DNA from: a phage
Direction: 5' to 3' (one strand)
Sequence record: PZ357121.2
DNA: 64,000 nucleotides
In this document: positions 567 to 52,949 of the stretch, piece after piece
Numbering within the stretch: position 1 is the stretch's first letter
Layout: every line of letters starts with the position of its first letter
Notes under the pieces: generated by a model
The model's database searches: none
Told to the model about the DNA's origin: nothing
Seen by the model: only the letters and a program-made list of their open reading frames with translations
Position numbers and translations under genes: made by a program

Positions 567-596
567 ATAGTACCAATATTAGTGTTGATTGTAAAC
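567..596 (-). promoter_or_regulatory. T4-type early promoter (-35 GTTTAC, 18 nt, -10 TACTAT) upstream of asiA
   Basis: Minus strand GTTTAC-N18-TACTAT followed by conserved leader ATCCATATCAAC; 35 nt upstream of asiA ATG. Confidence 0.5.
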
Positions 597-729
597 GGCC
601 TTTTCTACGCTTTTAACGTAATTGGTATAGTCTTCCTGTTCATACGAGTGTAAGGCCAAGAACGGAACTAATAGTTCATTATAGACTAAAGCCTCACGCT
701 CACGTTCGGCCTCTACTACGTTCTGGAGA

Positions 730-1029
730 TTATGACTCATATCGTTCCTTATAACTATCAATGTAGTCCTGTATGTCGAAGAATGACATTTCATATTCTA
801 GGGCATTAAGAGCCCGTTCTTCAGTATAGTCAGAACCAAAGACGATAGTGATTTCACCAGGCTTCATGTGATTGAAATCAACACTAAAAGGAATACGAGA
901 ACATACTTCGTCTGCCATATCTGCAACAACACTACGATATACTTCTCGGTTAACCTGATAAAGCTCTGCAAGTTCTTCGCATCGAATAACAAGTTCAGTG
1001 GCAGGATTTTCTTTGATTTTAGTAAGCAT
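730..1029 (-). CDS. hypothetical protein (99 aa, acidic; arn-region)
   Basis: ATG ORF on - strand between motB-region genes and asiA; acidic composition; T4 arn occupies this position but identity not verified. Confidence 0.5.
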   Translation of the reverse strand: MLTKIKENPATELVIRCEELAELYQVNREVYRSVVADMADEVCSRIPFSVDFNHMKPGEITIVFGSDYTEERALNALEYEMSFFDIQDYIDSYKERYES

Positions 1030-2408: not shown

Positions 2409-3041
2409 TCACAGTACGTTAGTTACAAGGGTAATGATTTCTTTGGACACATTAGGGAAGTCAATGTAAGTATATTTACCACCGATCTTAATCTTAACAT
2501 CATTTTCAAGAGAAGTAAACAGCTTTGATTCAGTTTCTGACATGTTGTATGCAAAGATTCTAAGAGAACCATCTCGACGAATTTCGATCTGACGAATACC
2601 TAGAACTCGTTTTGCAAATCGAACTTCCAAGTTACTACGGTTTTCACCGATTTCTTTAACTTCAACTTTATCTTTAATATTTTCAAAAACAAAGTTTGCT
2701 AGTTCATGCATTTCAGGAGTAACTCCACGTGCTTTTCTGGTGTTACGTTTCTGAAGAAGTTCTGGAGCATTTTCTTGGGCAAAAAGGTCTGCAGCTTTTT
2801 GGATAATATCCATTGCTTCGCCTGTTGCTATAAGTCCATCACCAGATTTTTCGACTAAACCTTTCTTAATCAATACACCAATGTTAGAGTTAACAACCGA
2901 TGCATTGTATTCCGCTTCCAGAGCTTCACGGACATTGGCAGCAGTGGTGAAGTTGTTCTTAATGATATAAACCATTATTGCAGCAGTTTTTTCATTCAGA
3001 GCGTTTTCGGAAGCTTTGATGATGTAAGCAACTTTAGACAT
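2409..3041 (-). CDS. hypothetical protein (210 aa)
   Basis: ATG ORF with GGAG SD 8 nt upstream; early promoter upstream. Confidence 0.65.
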   Translation of the reverse strand: MSKVAYIIKASENALNEKTAAIMVYIIKNNFTTAANVREALEAEYNASVVNSNIGVLIKKGLVEKSGDGLIATGEAMDIIQKAADLFAQENAPELLQKRNTRKARGVTPEMHELANFVFENIKDKVEVKEIGENRSNLEVRFAKRVLGIRQIEIRRDGSLRIFAYNMSETESKLFTSLENDVKIKIGGKYTYIDFPNVSKEIITLVTNVL

Positions 3042-3080
3042 TTTATTTCTCCAATTTGGTTGTTTTGTTTTGATAGGTCT

Positions 3081-3109
3081 ATAATATCATGTTTGAAGCA
3101 CATGTAAAC
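3081..3109 (-). promoter_or_regulatory. T4-type early promoter (-35 GTTTAC, 17 nt, extended -10 TGaTATTAT)
   Basis: Minus strand GTTTAC-N17-TATTAT then AGACCTATCAAAAC leader, GGAG SD and ATG at 3041. Confidence 0.6.
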
Positions 3110-4558: not shown

Positions 4559-4699
4559 TCACCATATTAATGAACGAATAACCATTATAACATCTGAAAT
4601 GAAAAGCACTACTTGGATTAGCCCAAACATCACACCGTAGTACAGAACCGTAAGCAAAAACAAGAGCCCGAAGGCTCCTGCTAAGATTTTCTTAATCAT
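4559..4699 (-). CDS. putative small hydrophobic peptide (46 aa)
   Basis: ATG overlaps TGA of upstream small ORF; hydrophobic; ends 4 nt before gene 52 ATG; ORF contains a terminator-like hairpin so may be non-coding. Confidence 0.3.
   Translation of the reverse strand: MIKKILAGAFGLLFLLTVLYYGVMFGLIQVVLFISDVIMVIRSLIW
4664..4677 (-). terminator. terminator-like hairpin (GAGCC-CGAA-GGCTC + T-rich tail)
   Basis: Stem-loop followed on - strand by TTGTTTTTGCTT; lies inside the 46-aa ORF. Confidence 0.35.
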
Positions 4700-4845
4700 T
4701 GCTCGCCTTTTAATACGTTAAGAAGAGCTAAGACCGCTAAGGTACCTTGTGACACAGCCTGTTGAAATACTGTTGTTTCGCCTGTAACTAAAGTGTTAAC
4801 GAATAAAAACGACCAACACAGCAATGCAATAATCCATGCTACCAT
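4696..4845 (-). CDS. small membrane protein (49 aa; position of T4 ac/stp)
   Basis: ATG ORF missed by 60-aa cutoff; hydrophobic N-terminus MVAWIIALLCWSFLF; lies between ndd and 52 like T4 ac. Confidence 0.4.
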   Translation of the reverse strand: MVAWIIALLCWSFLFVNTLVTGETTVFQQAVSQGTLAVLALLNVLKGEQ

Positions 4846-5678: not shown

Positions 5679-5870
5679 AATTAAATTACATTAAAATATG
5701 TCAAAGCCAACCATGTTCCAGTGAACGAACATGCGATGTAAAACCCCGTATCACAAATTGTTCTTAGTACAATAAGAAGTGCATTTTTCATAAGTACCTC
5801 AATACAATTGAAAATATTATACAAATCATAGGGATACTAAGCAACCATATTCCGATCCACATTTTAGAGC

Positions 5871-6202: not shown

Positions 6203-6679
6203 TTAAAGTTGAAGATACCACCCGTTGTAGTTGCTCTTGCGGACGATTTTCTTTAGGTCTTCATGGTCTCCCACGAACTTTATAGAATAAGAGAAGACGT
6301 CAGGTGAGGTTTCTTTGACATCTAATATAATAATGCAATCTGCGACTCGATGGTTCAAGAAGGGCCCTATGTTGATTCCGTTGCCGCCTGGATAATCACC
6401 ACTGTATCCTGTGGTAACAGAAATCCATTTAGAATCCATCTGATGTGTCTTGACTTCTACACGAATTCCACAATATTTGGGATGGGCCAACACGTCCCAT
6501 GCATACGTGTACGGGTCTTCTACGTCTTCAATACCTTTATTAACATATCCGTCTAGCCAATTTGCTACTACATACTCTGCAAAGACTGCAACCTTACAAC
6601 GTCGAACTACATCTTCTTTGTTTTGGTCTGGATTTTGGCTCAACGAATATCGAGCAGTGTCAGCAATCTTCACCTTCAT
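6203..6679 (-). CDS. hypothetical protein (158 aa; denB-region)
   Basis: Internal ATG (track ORF 6203-6823) chosen so the gene starts 16 nt after upstream stop; sits where T4 denB lies but sequence not verified. Confidence 0.45.
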   Translation of the reverse strand: MKVKIADTARYSLSQNPDQNKEDVVRRCKVAVFAEYVVANWLDGYVNKGIEDVEDPYTYAWDVLAHPKYCGIRVEVKTHQMDSKWISVTTGYSGDYPGGNGINIGPFLNHRVADCIIILDVKETSPDVFSYSIKFVGDHEDLKKIVRKSNYNGWYLQL

Positions 6680-6695
6680 TTCACTAGTCAAAAAC

Positions 6696-6983
6696 TCATT
6701 CGACAGGATAAATGTCGGAAGACTCTTCAGTCTCAACAATCCCAAGTTCGTCTTTACCATAGATACCTCTGATGTGTAGTTCGCCAAAATAAATGCGGTC
6801 ACCTTCTTCAAGATATTCTGCATCTACCGGTGGGATTTCAATAACAACTTCGTCGCATTCTAACCAGCCGTAGTGTGCATCACCAGGATGTTTTACCAAT
6901 TTAGCACAATAAACTGATTTACACTTATGATGACCACGAAGATTAGCAATTTTGGATTCTGACACGTCAAATGGATGAATCAT
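6696..6983 (-). CDS. hypothetical protein (95 aa)
   Basis: ATG at 6983 with AGGGG SD; upstream part of track ORF is encoded by the rIIB terminator hairpin. Confidence 0.5.
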   Translation of the reverse strand: MIHPFDVSESKIANLRGHHKCKSVYCAKLVKHPGDAHYGWLECDEVVIEIPPVDAEYLEEGDRIYFGELHIRGIYGKDELGIVETEESSDIYPVE

Positions 6984-11628: not shown

Positions 11629-11646
11629 AAGCTCCCGAAGGAGCTT
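11629..11646 (-). terminator. terminator-like hairpin downstream of gene 39
   Basis: AAGCTCC-CGAA-GGAGCTT hairpin followed on - strand by CATTTTAATTTT. Confidence 0.45.
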
Positions 11647-13462
11647 AGGACATCCATTCTTTACGAAGTTCTGAATCATCACCCAACAACATTTCAAAGA
11701 GTTCTTTCCAATTTTCAGGAAGTTTAACTACGTCGTACACAGGATTCTGAATCATTTCACGATATTCTGACTTTTCAAGGGAGCCCAATCCCTTGATGTA
11801 TCGAATACTATGCTTAGGCAGTGTATCTTTAACTTCTTCATACTCAGCTACAGTATAAAACCATTTTTGAGTTTTGCCAATTTGTGCAATAATTACAGGC
11901 GTTTTAACAAAGCGAATACGTCCTTGTTCGAACAATTCGGGCCAATTACTAAAGAAAGCAAGCAAAGCCGGATAAATACTTCCAAGACCATCATGATCGG
12001 CATCGGTCATAATTGCAATATTACGATAGTTCGTATTCTCTGCCTTTTCACCAAGAATAAGACCTGTGATAGCACAGATATCAAAGAGCTCTTTGTTCTT
12101 CATCATATCAGCATATGACATACCCCAGCTATTCATCACCTTACCACGTAATGGGAATCCACCGTGTAGTTCACGGTCACGAACATCAATGAGATAACCA
12201 ATTGCCGAATCACCTTCTGTTAAAAACAATGTCGTATCTGCATCTTTACCACATTGGTTAGCTTTAATATGCTTATGAACCTTAGCTTTAGTTGCCTTTT
12301 TAGCTGCTTTAGTTTCTGCAGCCTTTTCTGCTGCCAATTTACGAGCTAATGCTGCTTCAACAATAGGCATAATCAAGGCTTCGTTTTTAAGAAGTGCCTG
12401 AGCAATTTTCTTAGCATCTAATTGGATATGATTACGAATATCGCCATACGTTGACGTTAAACGTTCTTTAGTCTGAGAATCAAAACGCATGTTGCTCATG
12501 TCTCTAATAAACATCAACATTGTGAGACATTCTTTAACACGAGCTTTAGTGACTTCAATACCCTTATATTTCTTTTTAATGCCGGGCAAAAGATGTTCGC
12601 AGATATCATCCATTACACATTCAACATGATGACCACCATTTTTAGTATGGATGTTATTCACATAAGTTAAATGACGGAAGCCATCTGGTGATGTTGTGAA
12701 TGCTATAGAGACTTTATCATTTTCTTGAATGATGTTATCTTCGCCAAATTGTTTAGCAAATCGTTTAAAATTACCATCAACCTTTTTACCATTAAATGTG
12801 AACTTGATATCAGGATAAACGACTGCCAATGTTTGAAGACGGTCTAAAGTAATATCTAAATAAATTTGAGATAAATTATGCTCTTCAAATGAAGAGAAAT
12901 CAGGAGTGAAGATTACTTTAGTGCCTTTACCTTTAGATTTCTTAGAAGACCACGATTTGTTTTCCATTCCGTTTGAACAGTTAACAGTGATTTCATTTTC
13001 GCCATCTGACGTTATGCCTGTAAACAACGTAGAGAAGATATTAGTTAAACTACTCCCGACGCCGTTCATACCACCAGTCTTGCGTTCAGAGTCATCACCA
13101 AAGTTACCGCCGGCCTTTGGAATAGTCCAGGCTGCTACAGGCCCAGGAATTTGTTCACCTGTTTGGTCGGTAACTAAACCTTGAGGAATACCACGTCCGT
13201 TATCTTCCACCGAAACTTGATTATTTTTAATTTGCACATCAATTTTATTTGCAAACTTAAATGATGTACGAATAGCTTCATCAACCGAGTTGTCAATAAT
13301 CTCATCGATTAATTTAACCAGACCAGGAACATATTCAACTTGTTGATATTTACCAAACAAAAAACGCTCGTGGGCTTCTTTGGCCGAAGAACCAATATAC
13401 ATGCCACTACGTTTCTTAATATGTTCTACATCTGACAATACCTTAATTTCATTTTTAATCAT
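11645..13462 (-). CDS. 39: DNA topoisomerase II large (ATPase) subunit, fused gp39/gp60 type (605 aa)
   Basis: ATG ORF; GyrB-like ATPase motifs; 605 aa continuous, so no split gene 60 or bypass element as in T4. Confidence 0.9.
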   Translation of the reverse strand: MIKNEIKVLSDVEHIKKRSGMYIGSSAKEAHERFLFGKYQQVEYVPGLVKLIDEIIDNSVDEAIRTSFKFANKIDVQIKNNQVSVEDNGRGIPQGLVTDQTGEQIPGPVAAWTIPKAGGNFGDDSERKTGGMNGVGSSLTNIFSTLFTGITSDGENEITVNCSNGMENKSWSSKKSKGKGTKVIFTPDFSSFEEHNLSQIYLDITLDRLQTLAVVYPDIKFTFNGKKVDGNFKRFAKQFGEDNIIQENDKVSIAFTTSPDGFRHLTYVNNIHTKNGGHHVECVMDDICEHLLPGIKKKYKGIEVTKARVKECLTMLMFIRDMSNMRFDSQTKERLTSTYGDIRNHIQLDAKKIAQALLKNEALIMPIVEAALARKLAAEKAAETKAAKKATKAKVHKHIKANQCGKDADTTLFLTEGDSAIGYLIDVRDRELHGGFPLRGKVMNSWGMSYADMMKNKELFDICAITGLILGEKAENTNYRNIAIMTDADHDGLGSIYPALLAFFSNWPELFEQGRIRFVKTPVIIAQIGKTQKWFYTVAEYEEVKDTLPKHSIRYIKGLGSLEKSEYREMIQNPVYDVVKLPENWKELFEMLLGDDSELRKEWMS

Positions 13463-13511: not shown

Positions 13512-13527
13512 AAGGGCCGAAGCCCTT
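13512..13527 (-). terminator. rho-independent terminator
   Basis: AAGGGC-CGAA-GCCCTT hairpin followed on - strand by TTTGCTTT. Confidence 0.5.
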
Positions 13528-13948
13528 ATTTAAATTTAATTTTCTGAAGTGCATCAATTGCAGCCAAACGCCCTTGTTCACTTTTAACTGTAATGACCAC
13601 ATCGCCTGATACGATCACCGAACCATCAACAAATTCTATAGAGCCTTTTTTGAAATCGACAGCTGTATCTGGTTCCGGAACTTCTTCAAAGAATTTAAAT
13701 TCTGCACCATAAAGCAGAATATCACCTTGCATACTAATGATTGTACGCCCAGGTCCATCGGTTTCAGCGGCAATCATTGAAACACCGTAACCAATCATCT
13801 CTTCTACAATAAAATCTCTTGATAATAAAACTGTATGCAGAGTAGTGTTAAGACGTTTACCAGTTGTATTAAGAATTCTCAAGAAATTATCTTCTTGACC
13901 TTTGATAATACGATATTTCTTACCAACTTCAAAACCTTTAAAAGCCAT
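13526..13948 (-). CDS. hypothetical protein (140 aa)
   Basis: ATG ORF. Confidence 0.6.
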   Translation of the reverse strand: MAFKGFEVGKKYRIIKGQEDNFLRILNTTGKRLNTTLHTVLLSRDFIVEEMIGYGVSMIAAETDGPGRTIISMQGDILLYGAEFKFFEEVPEPDTAVDFKKGSIEFVDGSVIVSGDVVITVKSEQGRLAAIDALQKIKFK

Positions 13949-13951
13949 AAT

Positions 13952-14131
13952 TAACCCTTCTTAAGTAAGTCGTAAAAACCACCGTTCACATGTTTAGGAG
14001 CAGAAACCCGACGAGTAGACAGACGATGACATTCAGGGCAAACATCGTTTTCTCGTTCAGAAATTCTTTTAATTTTTTCATATTCATGACCACAATCTTC
14101 AGATTGGCATTTATAGTCGTATAACGGCATT
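13952..14131 (-). CDS. zinc-ribbon protein (59 aa; two CxxC pairs)
   Basis: ORF below 60-aa cutoff found by reading the gap: MPLYDYKCQSEDCGHEYEKIKRISERENDVCPECHR...; fills the gap between flanking genes exactly. Confidence 0.6.
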
Positions 14132-14132
14132 A

Positions 14133-14543
14133 TTATTCCTTAAAATGTGCTTTCAACATTTGATACAAAGACCATGCCTGGTCATTATTTTCGATAGTAA
14201 TCGTCATCACAGGAAATTCAGACAATTCGCCAAGTTCACCAGAATCTTGCTCTTCAGACGCTTGATATGGATTTTCCACTTCATCAAAAAACTCTGCTTC
14301 GTTCGTGGAGAGCCAGATAAAGTTTTCATCAAGGATATCACCGCCTGTGGCGTATCCAACAGTGCCAGTAGATGTCACAATTTTAGTAGGACGTCCAAGA
14401 TGGTCAACATCTAATACTTTAAACGGTTCCATGCCAAGACGTCGTGCATAAATCCCATTATCAGTGTGGTCTTTAATAAACTCTTCTTGGGCACGTTTAT
14501 CTATAAATTGATACCATGAGTTAACGCGGAATTTATTAGCCAT
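14133..14543 (-). CDS. hypothetical protein (136 aa)
   Basis: Internal ATG (MANKF...) overlaps upstream TAA as TAATG; track ORF extends to 14561. Confidence 0.55.
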
Positions 14544-15840: not shown

Positions 15841-16338
15841 TTAAGCTTTATGAGGAGACACATAGCGAGTGATTTCAGATTCTTTAACAACTCGGAAGTC
15901 ACCTAAGAATACGATATTGTATAACTTTTCACCATCTTCAACCCATTGGTCACTAATGAAGCCACACATAGTATCAGTTTTGCTTGGATAACCGTATTCG
16001 TCGATGTAATCAAATTCTTTATCGGTTATAAATTCAACGCCTTTGCAAAGAGCCCATTTGAACTGTGTAGTAGGCTCAACGATATCGCTTGAAGCAAAGT
16101 GTGCAGGTGCAACTTCTTCGCTTGAAGCAAATTGGACTCGTATATGTTTTTCCAGGAATTTAGGACTTACGTAAGCATACTGGGCATCTTGTCCGCCAAA
16201 ACTGGGCATGATTCGAACTTTAACTTCTTTAATACGTCCCATGCCATTTGTGCGAAGTCCGACAACTTCAACCAGACGACCTGCGGCTTTAGACCGGGAT
16301 GCAGTTGATACACGCTTAATTTCACCAATAGTAATCAT
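15841..16338 (-). CDS. hypothetical protein (165 aa), paralog of adjacent gene
   Basis: ATG ORF; tandem paralog of 15412-15831. Confidence 0.65.
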   Translation of the reverse strand: MITIGEIKRVSTASRSKAAGRLVEVVGLRTNGMGRIKEVKVRIMPSFGGQDAQYAYVSPKFLEKHIRVQFASSEEVAPAHFASSDIVEPTTQFKWALCKGVEFITDKEFDYIDEYGYPSKTDTMCGFISDQWVEDGEKLYNIVFLGDFRVVKESEITRYVSPHKA

Positions 16339-16369
16339 AATTTTTTCTCTCTTTGTTTAAGTTGAATTC

Positions 16370-16399
16370 ATTATACTCCATCCATCCTTGGATGTAAAC
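16370..16399 (-). promoter_or_regulatory. early promoter (-35 GTTTAC, 18 nt, -10 TATAAT) with CCAAGGATGG spacer motif
   Basis: Minus strand GTTTACATCCAAGGATGGATGGAGTATAAT. Confidence 0.55.
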
Positions 16400-16404
16400 T
16401 GATT

Positions 16405-20224: not shown

Positions 20225-20252
20225 TTAGGTTTCTCCTCTGGTTGATAAAAGT

Positions 20253-20281
20253 ATAGTATCATCGTCGGTAGAGTTTGTACA
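20253..20281 (-). promoter_or_regulatory. T4-type early promoter (-35 TGTACA, 17 nt, -10 TACTAT)
   Basis: Minus strand motif then TATCAACCAGAGGAG leader; first of two tandem promoters. Confidence 0.55.
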
Positions 20282-20382
20282 CTAAAAATTCAATATTTTC
20301 AAATGAATGATTTTGTTAGGTATTCGCGTTCTTGAAGTTCAGATTGACATGTCATGATAGACCTCCATTTAAAGATAAGCCT

Positions 20383-20411
20383 ATCATAACACGAGAGGAG
20401 GGAATGTAAAC
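20383..20411 (-). promoter_or_regulatory. T4-type early promoter (-35 GTTTAC, 17 nt, -10 TATGAT)
   Basis: Minus strand motif; second of tandem pair upstream of the ModA-like gene. Confidence 0.5.
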
Positions 20412-20575
20412 TACTTTTTAAGCTTTCCTACTAAAGGTCCTGATGGACCTGGTTGTTCTAACATGAATAATGATGCTTTAAAAAGCAATGCCAACCCTTT
20501 CACCATTCGATACCATGCCTCAAAGTCTTTTTCCTTGATTTCTAGTAAGAATTTCTCTTTAAATTTCTCTTTCAT
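20411..20575 (-). CDS. hypothetical protein (54 aa)
   Basis: ORF below cutoff; ATG overlaps upstream TGA (ATGA coupling). Confidence 0.45.
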   Translation of the reverse strand: MKEKFKEKFLLEIKEKDFEAWYRMVKGLALLFKASLFMLEQPGPSGPLVGKLKK

Positions 20576-20751
20576 TTCCAAGGACTCCATGGTGGAGGGT
20601 CGTCATAATAAGAGGCAAGGTCTTTCAGGGCTTCAACAGGTAAACTAAAGCCGTGACGTTGTATAATACTATCTAGTTCATCAACAAGTTCACTACGATG
20701 CACTTTAGGAGCCTCAACTTCGGGCTCATCAAACATACTCATCAAGTCCAT
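20572..20751 (-). CDS. hypothetical protein (59 aa)
   Basis: ATG at 20751; track start at 20760 is GTG. Confidence 0.45.
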   Translation of the reverse strand: MDLMSMFDEPEVEAPKVHRSELVDELDSIIQRHGFSLPVEALKDLASYYDDPPPWSPWK

Positions 20752-20752
20752 A

Positions 20753-21217
20753 TTATTCACCGAGATAAAAACTAGCAGGTTCAGAGAATGTTTCTAGTGC
20801 TACACCTTTTGTCTTAAAAAATTTCCAAATAGCCCGTTGCAAGTGGATTAAATCTGCTAATGATGTAATAAAGTATTTTTTGGCAAAATACTTATGGTCT
20901 CGCTTTTCAAACAAGTCTAAACGCTTTTCAGGATTCACATAAACTGCATTTTCCGTGGATTCATAACCTAAGTCCTTTATGCCTTCTTCAAGACTAAACG
21001 GAGAATTTTTAGAATGAGTAATAGCTCCAACTCGCTCTACACGAATTTTGTAACCTTTAGGAATCTGCAATTTACAGAATTCTTCTACGATATATTGCGG
21101 ATTATTTAGACTTTTGTTAATGAGAATAGCTATTTCTAGTGGAGTCTTATCTTCTACTGGTATATGTTTAAACGACTTGGCTTCAAGCAAATACATTTTA
21201 AATAACATAGCATCCAT
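20753..21217 (-). CDS. hypothetical protein (154 aa; mrh-region)
   Basis: ATG ORF. Confidence 0.6.
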   Translation of the reverse strand: MDAMLFKMYLLEAKSFKHIPVEDKTPLEIAILINKSLNNPQYIVEEFCKLQIPKGYKIRVERVGAITHSKNSPFSLEEGIKDLGYESTENAVYVNPEKRLDLFEKRDHKYFAKKYFITSLADLIHLQRAIWKFFKTKGVALETFSEPASFYLGE

Positions 21218-21392
21218 TATAATTTCCTCGATGGTTCACCCATATAAAGTTTTACAATACGTTCGCCTTCATCTTCGATGAGCTTCTCTTCGTGTTTCTG
21301 GAATTCTTTAGCCATATTCTCTTCAAGAACATCCAGCCAATCTTCTGGTTCGACTCCATCATTCCAGCTTTTAAACCATTTTACTATTTTGT

Positions 21393-21593
21393 TCATTCAC
21401 AGCTTCCTGAGCTTGAACCACAATCAGAATAACTTGACCCAGAATCACCAGGCCAAGACGATACATATGAATGATTATAATCGGAAGAGCTTGAAGCATT
21501 AACCTGTTTTGTTTTTGGACGAACAACTTCTTCCATCATTCCGTCACCGTTATATTCCCAACTTTTTTCATGTGTATCAGGAATAGGCATCAT
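21393..21593 (-). CDS. hypothetical Ser/Gly-rich protein (66 aa)
   Basis: Internal ATG chosen to avoid 110-nt overlap; low-complexity C-terminus. Confidence 0.35.
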   Translation of the reverse strand: MMPIPDTHEKSWEYNGDGMMEEVVRPKTKQVNASSSSDYNHSYVSSWPGDSGSSYSDCGSSSGSCE

Positions 21594-22215: not shown

Positions 22216-22221
22216 ACTTAA

Positions 22222-22743
22222 TCAGTAACCATTATCCTGGCGTTCAAAGTTGTGTTGGTTTTTCAAGTAGTAAAGTTTAAAGATTTCTTCAGCGGAAAGA
22301 CCCAGACCTTGGAACATGTTCAGGACAAAGTGCAGAATATCAATCATCTCGAATTTAATTTCAAGCTGGTCTTCAGGAGACAGTTCATCGATACGACGAT
22401 TTCGATATTCAGCATGTTGAGCTTTCCACGGCTTCCATACAGAGCTAGCGGCTTTTTCACCATTGCTCATACCACCAAGTGAAGTCAACAGTTCACGGAA
22501 TTCATCATCAATATAATCTTTCTGATTACGCAGCCAATCAACAACATCACCAGCAGTGGCTAATTCATCGGGATGTTTGTTATGTTCAGGCTTGTCATTT
22601 GCCAGACGAACCTGTAAAGATTTCTGCATATCAAGCATTACCTGCAGAGGGTCTTTATCTTCGTGAATCAGAGCATTAAAATAAGCTTCTTCTGCTTTAT
22701 CAACACCAGAAATAAGTTGTGAACATTCGTTAAAGTGCGCCAT
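22222..22743 (-). CDS. 56: dCTP pyrophosphatase gp56 (173 aa)
   Basis: ATG at 22743 (MAHFNEC...); ...PLQVMLDMQ...ETAGDVVDWLR...IDDEFRELLTSLG...LSPEDQLEIKFE...HFVLNMF...EEIFKLYYLKN matches recalled T4 gp56. Confidence 0.9.
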   Translation of the reverse strand: MAHFNECSQLISGVDKAEEAYFNALIHEDKDPLQVMLDMQKSLQVRLANDKPEHNKHPDELATAGDVVDWLRNQKDYIDDEFRELLTSLGGMSNGEKAASSVWKPWKAQHAEYRNRRIDELSPEDQLEIKFEMIDILHFVLNMFQGLGLSAEEIFKLYYLKNQHNFERQDNGY

Positions 22744-26094: not shown

Positions 26095-26463
26095 TTAATT
26101 AAATTTGTTTAAACGTTCAATACACTGGACGTAGTTATTTGCGATTTGTTTCTGGGTAGGCTCTTTACCAGTTGTTTCAACATAGCGAATGAATGCGATT
26201 TCAGTAGCCTGTAAGCAATGTTCTTTAACGCGCTGTTCTTTTGACATAGCTACAGTATCGGAATCACGATAACGTTGAGCATGAGCATCAGCTTGAATCA
26301 TTCGATTACCTACAGTAACCGGGTCTTCCACTTCAACTTTAGGTTGTTCATACTGTTTAACATTCGGATTGTAAATCAGTTGGCCGACGTTATTAGGAAT
26401 AAAGCCATGGGCACCACATCCGGTTAATCCAAATACCATTGCTAAAGCGATTAATTTTTTCAT
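26095..26463 (-). CDS. putative lipoprotein (122 aa)
   Basis: ATG ORF; signal peptide with lipobox-like LTGC. Confidence 0.6.
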   Translation of the reverse strand: MKKLIALAMVFGLTGCGAHGFIPNNVGQLIYNPNVKQYEQPKVEVEDPVTVGNRMIQADAHAQRYRDSDTVAMSKEQRVKEHCLQATEIAFIRYVETTGKEPTQKQIANNYVQCIERLNKFN

Positions 26464-32986: not shown

Positions 32987-33091
32987 GTTTACCTCAATAC
33001 AGTTATTATATACTCAATTCATAAAGCTTATTTGAATTTCTTAGCGATGTTGATATAACGTAAAGCTTCAGCATCGATACTTCCAAGAACA

Positions 33092-33265
33092 CTATGAAGA
33101 AATGCATCAGCGTAGTATTCTAGTTGAACAGGTTTTAATCACTTTAGCCGCTTTAGTTTCAAACAGGCCCTTATGGGCCTTTTTAAGAATTTGTTCGTTG
33201 CTGTTAATTTTCGTAGTCAAAATCTCTTCGTTAAGTTGGTGGTTAAAAGTTTTTCTAGAAATCAT
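33092..33265 (-). CDS. hypothetical protein (57 aa)
   Basis: ORF below cutoff; ATG overlaps upstream TGA (ATGA coupling). Confidence 0.4.
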
Positions 33266-34422
33266 TCTGGGTACCTCAAAGCGTCGTCAGAGTTAGTTAT
33301 ATCAATAATAGATATAGAATTTTCTGATAACCCATTTTTAGATAACTGACGTTTATAATATCTTTCACAATATGTACACGTCGTCCCGCAGATTTCATTA
33401 GCACAATCGAAATCTGGATGTTTGAACCACCTTTTTTCTAAAAAGCCATCTAACAAAGAGGTTTCAATATTTACCGTATGTGAAAACTCAGTTTCGTTTT
33501 CAAGAGTGAAAATGGTCTCTAAAGGCTTCCACAATTCCAACAAATTACCTTCAAATTTTTCAGAAGCATAAGCTTCAAGAACTTTCAAAATGTAGTCTGT
33601 GCTACCTGTACGTCCCGAAACTTTAAATTGGGTGATACCAATATCGTTATAAAGTTTCAAATCTTGTGGACGAACAAAACGAGTTCTCAACCAGTTAAAT
33701 GGGTCTGTATCACGAGCTTTAATACAGTGCTGCATTGGATATCCATTTAAGGATTTGGCATCATCTACTGTAACATCGGTGCTATGGAAAATATAGCAAG
33801 AGTCACGATAACTACAATGTGTTGTATACCCTTTACCAGCATTAGAACAGAACTCATTTACAAGAACTTCAAATATTATATTGTTCTTATTGCAAAACTC
33901 TGCTGCACGCTTCAGGAAAGAAACTGAACGGTTCTTATGAATTCCACAGCAGACCTTTTTGATATTATATTGGTCATGCAAGTATTTGATTTGAGTTACA
34001 GCATCGACATGTAGAATTGTTGAAACTTCAATCTCAATGTCTTTATTGACTTCACGAACAATTTCCATAACAACAGGGTTAGCGATAGTAATACGCCATA
34101 CGCCTATTGACCAAAGATACTGAACATAATCCTGAATAGCTTTCTTCTTCCACTCAACTAGTTCTCTTTTTGAACCAGGATTTATCGTGTTGAGTGTATA
34201 GTTAAAGCAAATACCTAATTCGTTACAACGTTTAACGTAATCTTCTAACATCTTTTTGTCAACGTCGGGAAGCCTAAAATCAGGTCTGGCTGCTACAAAA
34301 GCCATTTCTCTTGTAGAGCCGTATACTTCGTTTATCAAGCTATTAGGATAAGTTTTATTGAGCTCTACGATTTTATCAAGAAGAGCTAAATCAAAATTCG
34401 TTCCGATTTTAAAGGTATTCAT
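33262..34422 (-). CDS. hypothetical protein (386 aa) with C-terminal Cys cluster
   Basis: ATG ORF; C-terminus CANEICGTTCTYCERYY (Cx4Cx3Cx2C); no family recognised. Confidence 0.65.
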   Translation of the reverse strand: MNTFKIGTNFDLALLDKIVELNKTYPNSLINEVYGSTREMAFVAARPDFRLPDVDKKMLEDYVKRCNELGICFNYTLNTINPGSKRELVEWKKKAIQDYVQYLWSIGVWRITIANPVVMEIVREVNKDIEIEVSTILHVDAVTQIKYLHDQYNIKKVCCGIHKNRSVSFLKRAAEFCNKNNIIFEVLVNEFCSNAGKGYTTHCSYRDSCYIFHSTDVTVDDAKSLNGYPMQHCIKARDTDPFNWLRTRFVRPQDLKLYNDIGITQFKVSGRTGSTDYILKVLEAYASEKFEGNLLELWKPLETIFTLENETEFSHTVNIETSLLDGFLEKRWFKHPDFDCANEICGTTCTYCERYYKRQLSKNGLSENSISIIDITNSDDALRYPE

Positions 34423-36589: not shown

Positions 36590-36733
36590 CTAGTTAAAGC
36601 ATTCATACTTTGCTTGTAGTCCAATCATAATCCATCCGATTATAAGAGTCGGAATCATTACTGGAGCCGTTAAGCTCCAGTAGATAGTCATGACAAGCAT
36701 CAATAGTAAAAGTCCTATTGTTATTGCTTTCAT
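36590..36733 (-). CDS. small membrane peptide (47 aa, 2 TM)
   Basis: ORF below cutoff; ATG overlaps SIS gene TGA (ATGA coupling); hydrophobic. Confidence 0.45.
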   Translation of the reverse strand: MKAITIGLLLLMLVMTIYWSLTAPVMIPTLIIGWIMIGLQAKYECFN

Positions 36734-37365
36734 TGTTCGCCTCGTAACATGGCACCTAGTGCACCACCAGGGTGGAACTTAAGGAAGTCATTAGAGGTAA
36801 ATCCACGTTCAGACGAAAGGTTGATAGCAAACGTATCGATAAGCGCTAACAACAATGTAGTGGACATGGTCGGAGCCAGAGAATTCTCATCAACCTCTAC
36901 TGCGATGCCTGTACAGAACGTATAATCAAAAAGAGCTTCGTATTCTTGTGGAATGTCCGGGTTACAATGCAACAGAATCTGTTTGACGTTCGGACGAATC
37001 ATTTTAAGATGCTTAGCCACGCCTATCATTTCTTCAGTTTTACCAGAACGACTAATATGAATCAACACATCATTAGGCGCAATGAATCCTGCATCACCGT
37101 GAGAATAATGCCCAGTGTTCAAGTACATACTCGGGATACCAAGTGAAGCAAATGTCTCAGAAGCTTTAGTTGCAATATTAGCATTCTTACCAACACCTGT
37201 AATAATTACTCGGCTTTCATAATTACTAAGTCCTGGGCGTCGAAGAGTTTCTAGAATAGCATTATAACGAGCAGGGTTTTGACTAATTACTTTGGCCATA
37301 GCGGCCAAAGAAGAAGCTTGTTTTATGATTGCGTCAATAGCGATAGTAATAGGAGTAGTTTTCAT
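36730..37365 (-). CDS. SIS-domain sugar-phosphate isomerase (211 aa)
   Basis: ATG ORF; SIS signatures GVGKNANIA and HISRSGKTEEM as in GmhA/KdsD-type isomerases. Confidence 0.75.
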   Translation of the reverse strand: MKTTPITIAIDAIIKQASSLAAMAKVISQNPARYNAILETLRRPGLSNYESRVIITGVGKNANIATKASETFASLGIPSMYLNTGHYSHGDAGFIAPNDVLIHISRSGKTEEMIGVAKHLKMIRPNVKQILLHCNPDIPQEYEALFDYTFCTGIAVEVDENSLAPTMSTTLLLALIDTFAINLSSERGFTSNDFLKFHPGGALGAMLRGEQ

Positions 37366-43330: not shown

Positions 43331-43522
43331 TTATTCGTAGAAGTCGGTAACTGTCCATGCGGAATTGCGATTAGACATTATTTTATTATACTCATCTTTA
43401 AAAGCAGATTTGAGCATTTGTTCAGTAACAATATGTTCTTCACCTGAAAACGTATTGGTCAAAACATATTTTTTAATTTCAGGGACAACGAGAAGATGTT
43501 GTCCGGTTGAATACTCCGCCAT
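43331..43522 (-). CDS. hypothetical protein (63 aa; 45.2-like position)
   Basis: ATG ORF. Confidence 0.5.
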   Translation of the reverse strand: MAEYSTGQHLLVVPEIKKYVLTNTFSGEEHIVTEQMLKSAFKDEYNKIMSNRNSAWTVTDFYE

Positions 43523-43546
43523 TATAAATCTCCGTGTTTAAAGCAA

Positions 43547-43554
43547 TATAAATA
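43547..43554 (+). promoter_or_regulatory. T4 late promoter TATAAATA on + strand upstream of HNH endonuclease
   Basis: Exact TATAAATA about 45 nt upstream of the + strand ATG at 43600. Confidence 0.5.
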
Positions 43555-43599
43555 GGTTTATCAATTTATCTGTTGCTGTATCAAATAAGGATTTAGTAA

Positions 43600-44316
43600 A
43601 TGAATTATAACTCAATATACGAAAAGCTTATCACCAATGCTAAATCAAGAAGTTTAGATGGTTATACAGAACGTCATCACATTATACCACAATGTTTAGG
43701 TGGAAGTGATGATGCTTTAAACTTAGTAGACTTAACACCAGAAGAACATTATTTGGCACATCAACTGTTGGTAAAAATCCATCCAGATAATGCCTCTTTA
43801 ATATATGCTGCTCGTATGATGACTATCTCATCTCCTAAAGCAGATAGAAGCAAAAACAAATTATTTGGATGGCTTCGACGTAAGAATCAAGAAGTTCAAA
43901 AGAACAAAGAATTCACTGCTGAAACCCGTAAGAAAATGTCCGAGTCTGCAAAAAATAAACCAAAGATTACATGTCCACACTGCGGTTTAACCGGCACTGA
44001 AGGAAACATGAGACGTTGGCATTTTGATAACTGTAAACAGGGCCCTACGCCTAAAATAGTAAAACTTGATCAAGAAACAAAGGATAAAATAATTAAAACC
44101 ATGGCCACGAAAATTTGGAAAGAAGATTCTTGCCCGTTTTGTGGCTTAACTACTAAGTTATCGGCGTTAAAGCCGCATATAAAATTCTGTAAATCAAATC
44201 CTAACAGAAAGAAAAAAGAGGACAAGAAAATTAAATGTCCTCATTGCGATAAAATAGGGATCCCTGCTAATATGCATCGTTGGCATTTTGATAACTGTAA
44301 ACATAAGCCTCATTAA
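43600..44316 (+). CDS. free-standing HNH homing endonuclease with three C-terminal zinc-knuckle repeats (238 aa)
   Basis: ATG ORF on + strand with AAGGA SD; HNH core ERHHIIPQCLGGSDDALNLVDLTPEEHYLAH; three copies of CP(H/F)CG...(NM(R/H)RWHFDNCK). Confidence 0.8.
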   Translation: MNYNSIYEKLITNAKSRSLDGYTERHHIIPQCLGGSDDALNLVDLTPEEHYLAHQLLVKIHPDNASLIYAARMMTISSPKADRSKNKLFGWLRRKNQEVQKNKEFTAETRKKMSESAKNKPKITCPHCGLTGTEGNMRRWHFDNCKQGPTPKIVKLDQETKDKIIKTMATKIWKEDSCPFCGLTTKLSALKPHIKFCKSNPNRKKKEDKKIKCPHCDKIGIPANMHRWHFDNCKHKPH

Positions 44317-46001
44317 GAGGCTTTCATTACAGTAAATCGTCCAACTTTGCTCATTTGCAAATGTTGTCCATAAGCTTGTGGGTCATGGTCTCTGTGGCTA
44401 ATTATAAACACGTTTGCATCGGTTAGAGAGTTAAGAATTGTTGAAATAGCTTTAATACCTTCAGAATCAGTCGCGGAATCCATGACTTCGTCCATAATTA
44501 ATGTATTGATTCTAACACCAGAAACCTTTTCAGCAATATCTCGCCATGTAAACAACAGTGCGATATCGATACGTGCCTTTTCACCTTGACTAAATGAAGC
44601 ATAACTAAAGTCTTCACGACCACGTGATTTTATAGATTCATTGAATTCTTCGTCAATAGAAAACACGTAATCAGCTTCCATGATTTTAAGATAATGGTTA
44701 ATCTGCTTATTAAACAGAGGCACATATTTTTTAATGATAGCACCTTTAATACCAGAATCTTTTAACATATCTGTGATAATACCACGATGGTATTTTTCAA
44801 GAACGATATCCGATTTTGTTTTAATGATTTTATCAAGTTCTTTTTGAAGCAAAGCTATCTCATCGGCATGGTCGATAAATTCTGCTGAGGCTTGCTCTAT
44901 TGCAGCTTTAACTTTCTTAGCTTTATCAATAGTGGCAATCATTGCTTGTTTCTTGGTACGAATATCAGATGCAAGGTCCTGCTTAGTCTTAACATTAGCT
45001 CTATATTCATCAACTAGGACACTCAGATTATCTCTGTGACAGGTAAGTTGCTCGAATGAGTGATTACATTCATGAAGCTTATCGGTAATCTTAGAGACAA
45101 TAGGGTCACCCTGGTGCAACTGTGATGCACAAGTAGGACATGTCCCGCCATCATGATACATCTTAATAACTTTGTTGTATGAGTCAATTTTAGATTTAAT
45201 CAAGAATGCTTCTTGTCCTATCTTGTTGAATGCCTCAGTAGGGTCTTCATCAAGAACGATATTAAGTAGACGCTCATTAGCTTCTTCGATTTCTGCTTTT
45301 AATGAACGAGCTTCTTTGGCTAGGTCGTCATACATATTCTGTAGACGCGCTACATTATCGCCAGATAATTTCTTTTGACGTTCGATATTCTCGTTATAAA
45401 TCTTAATTTGTTGGATAATACCATCTTTCTTGGCATCAAGAACTTGTCCCTGAGAATTAAGTTCTCGAACTTGAGACTTATTGATTTTATCCATTTCAGC
45501 GAGTGTGCCGACTTCTAAAAGGTCTTCGACAAGTTTTCTACGAGCAGGGGTGCTAAGAGCCATGAAAGGGGTATACCCTGCCGTCCCAAGCACAACGATC
45601 TGTTTAAAAGACGCGTATGACATTCCGATGCTACGTTCAAATTCTTCTTGGAAGTCACGACTGCTGGCAGATTCATCAAGACGAACACCGTCAACGGAGA
45701 TTTCGAAAATATTGGGCTTTTGGCCACGTTTAATGAAGTATTTTTTATCATCGAATTCCATCCAAAGCTCAACTAAGAGCTCTTTCTTGTTCGTGCTATT
45801 AATGATTTGTCCTTTCTTAACATCACGAAATGGTTTACCGAAAAGTCCGAAAGTAATGGCTTCTAACATCGTAGATTTACCACCGCCATTTTTACCAGTG
45901 ATTAATGTCTTTTGGACTTTATCTAATTGGATATCAATAGGATTCCCACCTACCGACATGATGTTTTGATAACGAACACGATTTAATTTAAATGATTTCA
46001 T
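44313..46001 (-). CDS. 46: recombination nuclease subunit gp46 (Rad50/SbcC-like, 562 aa)
   Basis: ATG ORF; Walker A GKNGGGKST; central coiled coil; C-terminal signature/Walker B region. Confidence 0.95.
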   Translation of the reverse strand: MKSFKLNRVRYQNIMSVGGNPIDIQLDKVQKTLITGKNGGGKSTMLEAITFGLFGKPFRDVKKGQIINSTNKKELLVELWMEFDDKKYFIKRGQKPNIFEISVDGVRLDESASSRDFQEEFERSIGMSYASFKQIVVLGTAGYTPFMALSTPARRKLVEDLLEVGTLAEMDKINKSQVRELNSQGQVLDAKKDGIIQQIKIYNENIERQKKLSGDNVARLQNMYDDLAKEARSLKAEIEEANERLLNIVLDEDPTEAFNKIGQEAFLIKSKIDSYNKVIKMYHDGGTCPTCASQLHQGDPIVSKITDKLHECNHSFEQLTCHRDNLSVLVDEYRANVKTKQDLASDIRTKKQAMIATIDKAKKVKAAIEQASAEFIDHADEIALLQKELDKIIKTKSDIVLEKYHRGIITDMLKDSGIKGAIIKKYVPLFNKQINHYLKIMEADYVFSIDEEFNESIKSRGREDFSYASFSQGEKARIDIALLFTWRDIAEKVSGVRINTLIMDEVMDSATDSEGIKAISTILNSLTDANVFIISHRDHDPQAYGQHLQMSKVGRFTVMKAS

Positions 46002-46249: not shown

Positions 46250-46484
46250 CCTCGATGCAGGCTTCAGCCATTTTCAGAAGAGAACCAGGAGTATCACCGT
46301 CCATTACATTGAAACTGAATTCCACAGCCCAGTCTGTACAGACACGAACTGCTTTAACTTCACCGTCTTCAACTCGTAATGGTTCAATCCAGTATTTCAC
46401 TGTGTTCTCGAATCCGTCGTCGTCAATAACGTCTATTTCAACTTCAAGCCCGAGCCCAGCATTGTTAAATTCATCTAAAGTCAT
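46224..46484 (-). CDS. hypothetical protein (86 aa)
   Basis: ATG ORF overlapping gene 47 stop. Confidence 0.55.
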   Translation of the reverse strand: MTLDEFNNAGLGLEVEIDVIDDDGFENTVKYWIEPLRVEDGEVKAVRVCTDWAVEFSFNVMDGDTPGSLLKMAEACIEDAYNDYED

Positions 46485-47500
46485 TGTGTTGCCTCAATAT
46501 AAAGTTCGTTGGAATATTTGACCAGCGCTTCTCTGTCTTCGTCTGAGATATCTGGAATCGCGTCAATATATTCTTTAATGATATCTTGAAGTGATTTAAT
46601 CTCGATTTCCTGGTCGTCATCAGATTCAACACTGTTATCAACTTTAGAAACCATACGAAGAGAGTGAACTACTTTTTCAAGTTCAGATTCAAACTTAGTC
46701 AAATCTGAATCAATTTCTGATACTATAACACGTACGGCTAGATTAGTATAATCAGAATAATTGATTTTGCCTTTAAACGGATAAGTGATTCGTCGATGCC
46801 ATGTTGTTTCATTAGGAATAAATTCCATACGTTCGACATCAGTGTCAAATACCCAGAATCCGCGCGGGTCGTTCTCATCACCTGCAGTAAGAGTCCATGG
46901 TGTCCCAATATATTTGACGTTAGCAGCTTCAGAGATTGTGTGGAAGTGGCCGGACCAGACTTGTTTATAGGTCTTTAAGAAATCAGGTTCAAGCCCATGA
47001 GACTTCATTCCTTTATAGAAATAAAAGCCGTTCAGTTCCCAGTGACCAACACAATATGCAGCAGAAGAAGTCTTGATGTGCTCTAAGATTTCACCTGTAT
47101 TTTCTTCACACATCCATGGAACGATATCAATCAGGCATCCGTCAAAATCTACAGTAGTTGGATGTTCGTAAATAGTAAAGTTTTCAAATTGAGTTAACAA
47201 TTCAGAAACAGTGTTAGGTGTTATTGTATTCTTAAACGCCATGTCATGGTTTCCTATCGTGACATGAACGTGAATGCCTGCTTTAGAAATCATATCAACG
47301 ATTTCACGATTGAATTCCATTGTACGATGTGTTATTGCTTTACGGACGTCAAACCAATCACCGTACTGAATCCAAGTTTTAATCCCGTGTTTCTTAGAGT
47401 ATTCAATTGCTTGTCGAATACCATCACGTTGAATATCTTGAACCCATGGGTCGTCTTGTTTGACTCCGATATGGAAGTCGCCTAAGTGCAAAATTTTCAT
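46481..47500 (-). CDS. 47: recombination nuclease subunit gp47 (Mre11/SbcD-like, 339 aa)
   Basis: ATG ORF with GAGGAA SD; calcineurin-type phosphoesterase motifs (LHLGDFH, GNHD). Confidence 0.95.
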   Translation of the reverse strand: MKILHLGDFHIGVKQDDPWVQDIQRDGIRQAIEYSKKHGIKTWIQYGDWFDVRKAITHRTMEFNREIVDMISKAGIHVHVTIGNHDMAFKNTITPNTVSELLTQFENFTIYEHPTTVDFDGCLIDIVPWMCEENTGEILEHIKTSSAAYCVGHWELNGFYFYKGMKSHGLEPDFLKTYKQVWSGHFHTISEAANVKYIGTPWTLTAGDENDPRGFWVFDTDVERMEFIPNETTWHRRITYPFKGKINYSDYTNLAVRVIVSEIDSDLTKFESELEKVVHSLRMVSKVDNSVESDDDQEIEIKSLQDIIKEYIDAIPDISDEDREALVKYSNELYIEATQ

Positions 47501-47552
47501 ATTATTTCCTCATTAGTTAATTCATTCTATCATCCGTTTATAAAGCAAAAAA

Positions 47553-47570
47553 GGAACTCCGAAGAGTTCC
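47553..47570 (-). terminator. rho-independent terminator
   Basis: GGAACTC-CGAA-GAGTTCC hairpin followed on - strand by TTTTTTGCTTT. Confidence 0.6.
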
Positions 47571-47743
47571 TATCCACATAGTACACCGTACAGAGGCTCA
47601 TTTGAACTTTTAAATCGAATGGGCTTGTACGTAATAGTTCCTTCGGCTTTAGCTTTATCATAAGACTCTTTAAAACGTCTCATTCTTTCTGCTTTGCCTT
47701 TACGGATTTTATCAAAATTTTCAGAAGTCGGGATGTTCGTCAT
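47570..47743 (-). CDS. hypothetical basic protein (57 aa)
   Basis: ORF below cutoff with GAGAGGTG SD; stop immediately precedes terminator. Confidence 0.45.
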   Translation of the reverse strand: MTNIPTSENFDKIRKGKAERMRRFKESYDKAKAEGTITYKPIRFKSSNEPLYGVLCG

Positions 47744-47782: not shown

Positions 47783-47989
47783 TCATCGTTTCCACCATTT
47801 CTTAACTTGAAATGAATCAACCCACACGAGTTGTTTTGGATCTGCCTTTACAATAGGCGGACAAATTTCTGTAATAGAACCGTCGTGATATTCCTTTTCG
47901 GAAATTTTAACACAAAGAGGACCACCCAATTTAACGGTGAACCCTGCGTTCAGCTTCAGACGTTTAAACTTTGTTTGAACTAGCGCCAT
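47783..47989 (-). CDS. hypothetical protein (68 aa)
   Basis: ATG at 47989 (track start is TTG); 26-nt overlap with upstream gene; weak SD. Confidence 0.3.
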   Translation of the reverse strand: MALVQTKFKRLKLNAGFTVKLGGPLCVKISEKEYHDGSITEICPPIVKADPKQLVWVDSFQVKKWWKR

Positions 47990-50309: not shown

Positions 50310-50510
50310 TTAACCGAACTTTTTAGCGCCTTTCCAGCCTTCGTACATAACTGCACAAGTCAGTAGTACAGCGTGCTGGCATTCTTTGTATTTGTAAATC
50401 CAGAACCAGCGTAAGAAGTCTTCATCCTCAACGCCGTTGAGTTTCATATTGGCAAAGAATTCGGCACGTTCTTCACGAAGCTTTTGCGATAACATAGATT
50501 CAGGATTCAT
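50310..50510 (-). CDS. hypothetical protein (66 aa)
   Basis: ATG ORF. Confidence 0.5.
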   Translation of the reverse strand: MNPESMLSQKLREERAEFFANMKLNGVEDEDFLRWFWIYKYKECQHAVLLTCAVMYEGWKGAKKFG

Positions 50511-50641
50511 TTTGTGTTCCAGGCCCCATTTTCATCGATGAACTTAATCCAGTCATTTACAGACCATTTAGTTGTATCACCCTTTGGATTAACATTTAAA
50601 GTATATAATCCCTGCTTAAAAAGCATTCGTTTGATATTCAT
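50507..50641 (-). CDS. hypothetical protein (44 aa)
   Basis: Internal ATG with GAGGAAAT SD; track ORF 50507-50734 overlaps upstream gene. Confidence 0.4.
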   Translation of the reverse strand: MNIKRMLFKQGLYTLNVNPKGDTTKWSVNDWIKFIDENGAWNTK

Positions 50642-52478: not shown

Positions 52479-52949
52479 TTAATCATGTTTCCACACCCCA
52501 TCGGTATTTGACCAAAGTCGCTGATTATCTGATCCTCGCCACAGCTTTTTAGTCGGAAGATTTTTCTCATACTTCCCATCAATAATAACATCAACATATT
52601 TAAGCATTTCTAGTTGTTTAATATCTTCAAACTTATATCCTGTCCACAACCAAATGCTTTTATTGGGATAAAGATTTTTTACTGTTTGAGCAATGCAATG
52701 AATAACATCTCGGTTATCAGGATAGAGAGGGTCACCTCCGGTTATAGTTAATCCTTCTATATAATCATTATTCAAACATTCAATTAATTGTTCTAGTGTT
52801 TCACCAGTGAATGGAACACCATTTCTAGCATTCCATGTTGATTTATTATAACACCCTTCGCATTTATGCAAACAACCTGTAACGAAAAGAACGACCCTGC
52901 ATCCAGGACCATTCACAAAATCGCAAGGATAAAATCTATCATAATTCAT
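52479..52949 (-). CDS. nrdG: anaerobic ribonucleotide reductase activating protein NrdG (radical SAM, 156 aa)
   Basis: ATG ORF; N-terminal Cys cluster CLHKCEGCYN typical of RNR activases; overlaps nrdD stop. Confidence 0.9.
   Translation of the reverse strand: MNYDRFYPCDFVNGPGCRVVLFVTGCLHKCEGCYNKSTWNARNGVPFTGETLEQLIECLNNDYIEGLTITGGDPLYPDNRDVIHCIAQTVKNLYPNKSIWLWTGYKFEDIKQLEMLKYVDVIIDGKYEKNLPTKKLWRGSDNQRLWSNTDGVWKHD

Follow-up and report, generated by a model that had tools for sequence, protein, structure and literature searches.

Six short reading frames in the early-gene region

The DNA analysed here, a single stretch of 64 kb referred to as the window, is, judging by sequence similarity, the early-gene region of a Mosigvirus, an RB69-like coliphage of the T4 type. 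The 3 kb around ORF A (see below) share 97–98% nucleotide identity with many Mosigvirus genomes (the RB69/JS09/moskry group). The genome of moskry is collinear with the whole window at 95–98% identity, with a few insertions and deletions as the exceptions. The minus strand carries nearly all genes in tight packing, and 12 junctions between genes of at least 60 aa are 4-nt overlaps of the ATGA type.

Within this layout, six open reading frames (ORFs) shorter than 60 aa, here called A to F, had been singled out in a first-pass annotation as plausible genes that exactly fill gaps between their neighbours. All six exist, lie on the minus strand and start with ATG. The coordinates proposed for B, D, E, and F were exact, whereas those of A were off by +1. 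The limits of C had to be corrected, as no ORF ends at 33092 and none therefore fits the proposed 33092-33265. The positions of the six ORFs, of associated features and of further small genes are compiled in Table 1.

Table 1. Small genes and associated features in the 64-kb window
Feature	Coordinates	Strand	Length (aa)	Description	Basis
Further small gene	579..740		53		
52.1	4559..4699	-	46	Membrane peptide, rest of the ac gap; not in the first-pass list	
ORF F	4696..4845	-	49	ac (acridine sensitivity/resistance) membrane peptide	phrog_2501, gene order
Further small gene	5681..5791		36		
ORF A	13951..14130	-	59	T4/RB69 gene 39.2 (nwgI) orthologue	annotation, Pfam, synteny
ORF B	20411..20575	-	54	RB69ORF020c-type Mosigvirus gene	annotation, phrog_5790
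modA.2	20572..20751	-	59	Upstream partner of ORF B; not in the first-pass list	
Further small gene	21217..21396		59		
Remnant	32987..33106	-		Last 35 codons of the 79-aa form of ORF C, now out of frame, plus short spacer	alignment
ORF C	33107..33265	-	52	Mosigvirus gene of 79 aa at the RB69 gp49 position, here as an allele truncated by a frameshift	
ORF D	36590..36733	-	47	Two hydrophobic segments; RB69 gp54 position; RB14 'gp42.1' family	phrog_3610
Terminator-like hairpin	47552..47571	-		8-bp stem (4 G-C), TTCG loop, T-run	starts at the stop codon of ORF E
ORF E	47570..47743	-	57	T4 a-gt.2 orthologue, DUF5486	Pfam PF17588, T4 identity
55.4	50507..50641		44	Further small gene	
Further small gene	57553..57723		56		

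The fit of the ORFs to their gaps was assessed by 2000 dinucleotide shuffles of each gap, counting those that gave an ORF at least as long. Exact filling held strictly for A only; in the 184-nt gap next to goF, it takes up 180 nt and leaves a 2-nt spacer on each side (5 of 2000 shuffles). It was approximate for D (80% of the gap; 23/2000) and, when taken together with 52.1, with which it shares one larger gap, for F (155/2000 for the length of F). The claim failed for the other three ORFs. E covers 62% of its gap (28/2000), the remainder of which contains a terminator-like hairpin, and C covers 58% (38/2000). The gap of B measures 528 nt and also holds modA.2 and 186 nt of non-coding DNA with a promoter-like site inside (149/2000 for the length of B). 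The ORF length alone is not unusual for B and F.

Several of the ORFs had been said to have ATGA overlaps. B, C, and D begin with such an overlap and F ends with one, shared with 52.1, but A and E have none; E starts with ATGA, yet no upstream gene stops there. A Shine-Dalgarno 4-mer is located 5–16 nt 5' of the ATG in all six ORFs, compared to 10.2% of all 1652 minus-strand ATGs. Judged from these signals, the six ORFs would be translated from polycistronic minus-strand mRNAs, each using its own Shine-Dalgarno site, and four of them would be tied to a neighbour through an ATGA stop/start overlap.

Conservation and selection in relatives

Orthologues were taken from 11 Mosigvirus genomes, T4, and about 30 T-even-like IMG/VR contigs. 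Good ortholog sets were obtained from IMG/VR for A and E only, and the sets for B, C, D, and F came from GenBank phage records. ECCR664 (OL631257.1) was left out of the codon tests on account of simultaneous frameshifts in A, B, C, and F and its sparse annotation. Four of the six small genes are frameshifted or truncated in this 134-kb record, which has just 100 annotated features; it has the look of a low-quality assembly full of errors and is unfit for conservation tests.

The reading frames of A, B, D, E, and F were intact, and their length constant or near-constant, in every good-quality relative, including lineages with a protein identity of only ~50–85%. Pooled Nei-Gojobori dN/dS values in the sense frame amounted to 0.08 for A (24 unique sequences), 0.22 for B (11), 0.27 for E (17), and 0.20 for the 79-aa forms of C, as well as 0.29 for D (7) and 0.31 for F (6), the codon tests of the last two comprising few unique sequences (6–7 and 5–6, respectively). 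The same alignment columns read in two shifted frames gave dN/dS values of ~0.6–2. In a comparison of all six frames, the sense frame had the lowest dN/dS for every ORF (0.04–0.35). It was also the sole stop-free frame in relatives, except over B, where one antisense frame is open. The test suggested along with the ORFs, conservation and codon substitution across relatives, thus returned conserved reading frames under purifying selection, and the initial judgement that these are plausible real genes is borne out.

Some of the ORFs, B and C above all, might instead be intergenic or regulatory DNA that is open by chance, or might mask a real gene on the opposite strand. Plus-strand ORFs indeed overlap B and C (20463..20648, 61 aa, and 33102..33296, 64 aa), both genes are confined to Mosigvirus, and shuffled sequence matched the lengths of B and F in the numbers given above. 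Moreover, all 11 relatives keep one antisense frame over B free of stops, with a dN/dS of 0.38, compared to 0.22 in sense. Against this, the sense frame had the lowest dN/dS of the six frames for all ORFs, and the antisense frame over C contains up to five stops in relatives. Both B and C have a Shine-Dalgarno site and ATGA coupling to an upstream minus-strand gene, in a region in which the minus strand holds nearly every gene. For B, the strand was chosen not by dN/dS alone but also by its Shine-Dalgarno site, its coupling to modA.2, the common orientation of the genes around it and the C-terminal motif GPxGPLVGK, which is common to B and T4 ModA.4, a protein detected in T4 (PMC9697503 Table S2). 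Chance frames or a hidden opposite-strand gene are extremely unlikely on balance, and the six ORFs are treated as minus-strand genes in what follows.

The description of the ORFs as unannotated was true only with respect to the 60-aa cutoff of the first-pass list itself. All six are CDSs in moskry (MN850651; moskry_13, 26, 39, 67, 71, and 84) and in other relatives, and they are annotated in JS09, O157 typing phage 6, and DCP548 as well. Each of the six matches a PHROG family, and the T4 counterparts fall into the same PHROGs. There is nothing new in this respect: all six were already annotated, and functions have been published for A and F. The ORFs are very probably ordinary, already catalogued small accessory genes of Mosigvirus early/middle transcription units, for whose biochemical functions we infer what follows from the T4 literature or from sequence.

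Individual genes and their T4 counterparts

ORF A is flanked by goF (14133..14543) and an RB69ORF005c-like gene (13526..13948); gene 39 lies at 11645..13462. T4 has its 39.2 in the corresponding place of the early cluster, with goF to one side and gene 39 further along on the other. The annotations of JS09, moskry, and typing phage 6 call the gene gp39.2, zinc ribbon or FmdB-like. The zinc-ribbon label assigned at first sight was corroborated by matches to Pfam PF09723 (Zn_ribbon_8; E=5e-13, 49.3 bits at a cutoff of 34.4) and TIGR02605 (E=9e-13, 48 bits at a cutoff of 31.3). The cysteines Cys8, Cys13, Cys31, and Cys34 are arranged as C8-x4-C13 and C31-x2-C34, an arrangement that is invariant in 24 of 24 unique orthologues; the first pair is spaced by 4 and not by 2, and the ribbon itself is a prediction from sequence.

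In a tblastn comparison with T4 39.2, residues 1-44 of A aligned with 73% identity (E=7e-21). For residues 45-57, the T4 record offers its match in an adjacent frame, and all other T-even relatives have it in frame (81–93% identity); the C-terminal 13 residues of A are 85% identical to those of T4 39.2. The alignment revealed one extra T in 39.2 of the T4 record (NC_000866, 5668..5839), where GCTTCCTAA stands against GC-TCCTAA in all relatives. The extra T shortens the annotated T4 product to 45 aa, whereas without it the product has 58 aa, the length given in the literature. It is likely a sequence error, the other possibility being a strain-specific frameshift of the reference.

Two papers that cite Ang & Georgopoulos (Genetics 2012) describe T4 Gp39.2/NwgI as a 58-aa peptide that is reported to shift GroEL to an open conformation accepting the co-chaperonin (GroES/Gp31), and to be required for the growth of T4 on particular groEL mutant hosts (PMC5153855, PMC4396842). 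By analogy, A would act on GroEL as T4 NwgI does, a GroEL-related function that we infer for the RB69-type 39.2 orthologue from its orthology. The two genes are alike in their position after goF, their size (59 aa here, 58 aa in T4), the four cysteines, and their membership in PHROG 1076 and the Pfam zinc-ribbon family. They differ in the two residues that follow the second cysteine (GH in the RB69-type protein, AK in T4), in the basic tail, which the RB69-type protein has in a slightly longer form, and in the downstream neighbour, which is an RB69ORF005c-type gene here and 39.1 in T4. An early transcript was reported for T4 39.2, while its protein was undetected in T4 proteomics, the database entry used there being the 45-aa form (PMC9697503 Table S2).

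The label 'FmdB-like transcriptional regulator', found in phrog_1076 and in RefSeq product names, would make A a DNA-binding transcriptional regulator rather than a chaperonin modulator. This label, however, is carried over from the family name, and Pfam and NCBIfam say zinc ribbon only. Apart from the ribbon, A contains no recognisable DNA-binding domain, and the sole experimental work cited on the T4 orthologue concerns genetic and biochemical effects on GroEL. A role as regulator is thus very unlikely, and A is preferably read as an NwgI-type chaperonin modulator.

ORF B is annotated in JS09 (with the note RB69ORF020c) and as moskry_39. Its ATG is overlapped by the TGA stop of modA.2 (ATGA), and a promoter-like TTTACA-16-TATGAT directly follows the gene. 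B is intact at 54 aa in all 11 unique sequences and was found in 154 phage records, all of them Mosigvirus-like. It matches phrog_5790 (E=1e-21) and no other PHROG family. The similarity to T4 ModA.4 amounts to 37% identity (pairwise E=6e-6); ModA.4 itself has a strong match to phrog_2681 and a secondary one to phrog_5790 (E=2.5e-8). These comparisons point to a distant relationship between B and ModA.4 rather than family membership. The two have the same length (54 aa), the neighbourhood of the mod/mrh cluster and a C-terminal P-x-GPLVGK-x-K motif in common. In contrast, their primary PHROGs differ (2681 for ModA.4, 5790 for B), and T4 modA.4 precedes modA.3, whereas B follows modA.2.

ORF D is an annotated CDS in relatives (moskry_71 and ECTP6_00944) and matches phrog_3610 over positions 1-47 of 47 (E=4.5e-27). 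Its ATGA start overlaps the stop of an arabinose-5-phosphate isomerase (SIS) gene (36730..37365, RB69 gp55). With hydrophobic stretches at about residues 1-23 and 21-41, the peptide would form a hairpin and is probably membrane-inserted. A tblastn search of the phage collection retrieved the family from 576 phage records with hosts in Escherichia, Shigella, Yersinia, Klebsiella, Serratia, Salmonella, and others, and dN/dS values ranged from 0.13 to 0.29.

A homologue of D was also found in T4, as a 49-aa ORF with two hydrophobic segments (26227..26376, minus strand; phrog_3610 E=1e-25). It starts by an ATGA overlap with the stop of imm, ends 7 nt before gene 42, and is unannotated in NC_000866 and in many Tequatrovirus records. 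A relationship of D to Imm itself was considered and rejected (BLASTP E=0.07).

The first-pass annotation had described D as a two-TM peptide coupled to the SIS gene. The two hydrophobic segments and the ATGA overlap were confirmed, but the coupling is not specific to SIS, as the family always has an ATGA coupling with whichever gene precedes it, imm in T4 and the arabinose-5-phosphate isomerase gene here. In RB14, a member of the family is annotated as gp42.1. D resembles the T4 ORF in sequence (54% identity over 46 residues), in the full-length match to PHROG 3610, in the ATGA overlap with the upstream gene and in its location in the segment between genes 43 and 42. The neighbours differ: the T4 homologue lies after imm and before 42, whereas D lies after the isomerase gene and before the gp52-53 nucleotidyltransferase/kinase gene of the arabinosylation cluster. 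The upstream partner of D belongs to the cytosine-arabinosylation cluster (PMC6024577, PMC13326640), and neither of these papers mentions gp54 or gp49. Because its place in the 43-to-42 interval is kept while the neighbours change, D is not specific to the sugar pathway.

ORF E is located between a-gt.3 (47783..47989) and gene 47 (46481..47500); it is directly upstream of gene 47 because Mosigvirus has neither glucosyltransferase genes such as a-gt nor mobB. The match to Pfam PF17588 reached 97.3 bits (cutoff 27), the identity to T4 a-gt.2 is 76%, and the gene is named a-gt.2 in ECCR664. An assignment to T4 47.1 was rejected, as E matches a-gt.2 instead. The peptide is basic and soluble, and the T4 a-gt.2 protein was found by mass spectrometry in a time-resolved proteome (PMC9697503 Table S2). 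E and its T4 counterpart belong to the same Pfam and PHROG families and share a position beside a-gt.3/a-gt.4/a-gt.5/55. They differ in length (63 aa in T4, 57 aa in E) and in the hairpin that follows E. The search for terminator-like hairpins yielded two sites, compared to 0.3 expected in shuffles.

The a-gt.2/DUF5486 motif (DYxKIR...YDKAKAEGTITY) was also observed in more distant T4-like phages (IMG/VR contigs L093..L098, match at 3001..3102), in which it forms the C-terminal end of reading frames with different beginnings. Both E and T4 a-gt.2 have an additional match to phrog_17354, confined to its final ~35 positions. As that family bears the label 'head maturation protease', either the C-terminal module is shared or the PHROG may be mislabelled.

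The product name of ORF F in moskry (moskry_13) and many other records is acridine resistance protein. The proposal of an ac-like membrane peptide was well founded: F is ac according to phrog_2501 (E=2.9e-22 for F and 2.2e-25 for T4 Ac), gene order and a strongly hydrophobic N-terminal segment. The pairwise BLASTP comparison of F with T4 Ac gave E=2e-7. T4 and the window have the order 52, 52.1, ac, ndd in common, as well as the overlap of the ac stop with the 52.1 start by ATGA, PHROG 2501, and two segments in the product, the N-terminal one hydrophobic and the second amphipathic. On the other hand, the identity of F to T4 Ac is only 37% (35 residues compared), and there is no stp between ac and ndd here. 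At 49 aa, F is slightly longer than its counterpart in most Mosigvirus genomes (48 aa).

In T4, ac is a non-essential gene for a predicted membrane protein of 51 aa, the loss of which leads to acriflavine resistance, and a 2025 preprint proposes that Ac interferes with AcrAB-TolC efflux (bioRxiv 10.1101/2025.06.30.662393). By analogy, F would be a small inner-membrane peptide, the presence of which would make the infection acriflavine-sensitive. T4 ac and 52.1 are transcribed early, and their proteins were undetected in T4 proteomics (PMC9697503 Table S2).

ORF C had been put forward as a gap-filling gene and turned out to be a frameshift-truncated allele of a 79-aa gene instead. Its ATGA start overlaps the stop of a U32-peptidase-like gene (33262..34422). 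The 79-aa form is present in moskry, typing phage 6, BEU50, TH12, and ECO111 5-P. In the nucleotide alignment, the window, DCP548, and EP02SG have a +1 insertion of an A after codon 44, and the window allele has a further 3-nt deletion. LNA2 contains an independent nonsense codon, five codons further on. The 120 nt after the stop of C, up to the start of the gene 42-like gene (gp48) at 32986, align base for base with the 3' part of the gene in moskry and typing phage 6. As this remnant shows almost no extra changes, the truncation is recent. C is a recently truncated allele, and its 52-aa product may be non-functional. Programmed frameshifting or transcriptional slippage that would restore the 79-aa product is unlikely, as there is only a run of 4-5 A and a +1 shift would be needed, and no evidence for either was found at this site.

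Whether C is a decaying pseudogene here or a working 52-aa gene is a closer question. The insertion common to DCP548 and EP02SG, the additional 3-nt deletion relative to the 79-aa form and the independent nonsense codon of LNA2 speak for decay. So do the match to phrog_8601, which extends over positions 1-46 of 79 only and not over the full length of the family, and the 120-nt remnant left untranslated. However, the truncated allele retains the 44 N-terminal codons as well as its Shine-Dalgarno site and ATGA coupling, and it is present in several independent isolates. In addition, the two different lesions fall in one short stretch, as they might if the C-terminal part alone were dispensable. 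Decay into a pseudogene is given slightly less than an even chance.

A reading in which D is an overlooked membrane effector (e.g., in superinfection exclusion or envelope remodelling) and, separately, the recurrent disruption of the C-terminal half of C, within the arabinosylation cluster, marks a gene lost or remodelled in some Mosigvirus lineages seems rather unlikely. The description of the six as ordinary small accessory genes, with C in a truncated allele, is preferred.

Differences from moskry and further small genes

Several insertions distinguish the window from moskry. A 1040-nt insertion at 54233..55306 in nrdD (52946..55808), absent from moskry, encodes a GIY-YIG/NUMOD1 homing-endonuclease ORF (54252..55022). 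A full-length match to the group I intron RF00028 was obtained at 55071..55306 in an Rfam scan of a small region (70.6 bits at a gathering score of 50); the whole-window Rfam scan at the gathering threshold reported nothing, so that the intron was seen in the small-region scan only. At the 5' end of nrdD, a segment of 1032 nt (55584..56615) stands in place of 220 nt of moskry, and a 273-aa ORF between gene 49 and nrdD (55799..56620) is homing-endonuclease-like with NUMOD3 (phrog_7504, E=3e-34). A further insertion of 806 nt at 43518..44323, between 45.2 and gene 46, contains a plus-strand homing endonuclease ORF of 238 aa (43600..44316; phrog_655, E=7e-67), the end of which overlaps the gene 46 stop.

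Three deletions relative to moskry were observed as well. They comprise ~503 nt inside modB (window ~20225..20410), of which only short remnants are left between ORF B and modA, ~489 nt covering a motB.1-like gene (~16332..16400), and ~386 nt covering soc.1/soc.2 (~22217..22258). In the denB region, the window has a single ATG ORF of 206 aa (6203..6823), where moskry has denB (477 nt) and a separate gene of 288 nt. A Pfam search of the 206-aa ORF gave no match; it may be a fusion or may simply result from the longest ORF having been chosen.

Apart from the six ORFs, the window contains at least seven more intact genes of less than 60 aa, all of which are annotated in moskry and absent from the first-pass list (Table 1). 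An ORF cutoff of 60 aa consequently hides at least 13 genuine genes in a 64-kb stretch of a T4-type genome. Simple criteria, namely gap fit, a Shine-Dalgarno site and ATGA coupling, recover such genes. This matters little beyond annotation hygiene, from which the T4 reference record would also benefit, as its 39.2 is cut to 45 aa and the conserved 49-aa ORF between imm and 42 is absent. For the RB69-type DNA-modification cluster, the finding means that gene C is polymorphic for truncation, which is relevant to anyone dissecting this cluster.
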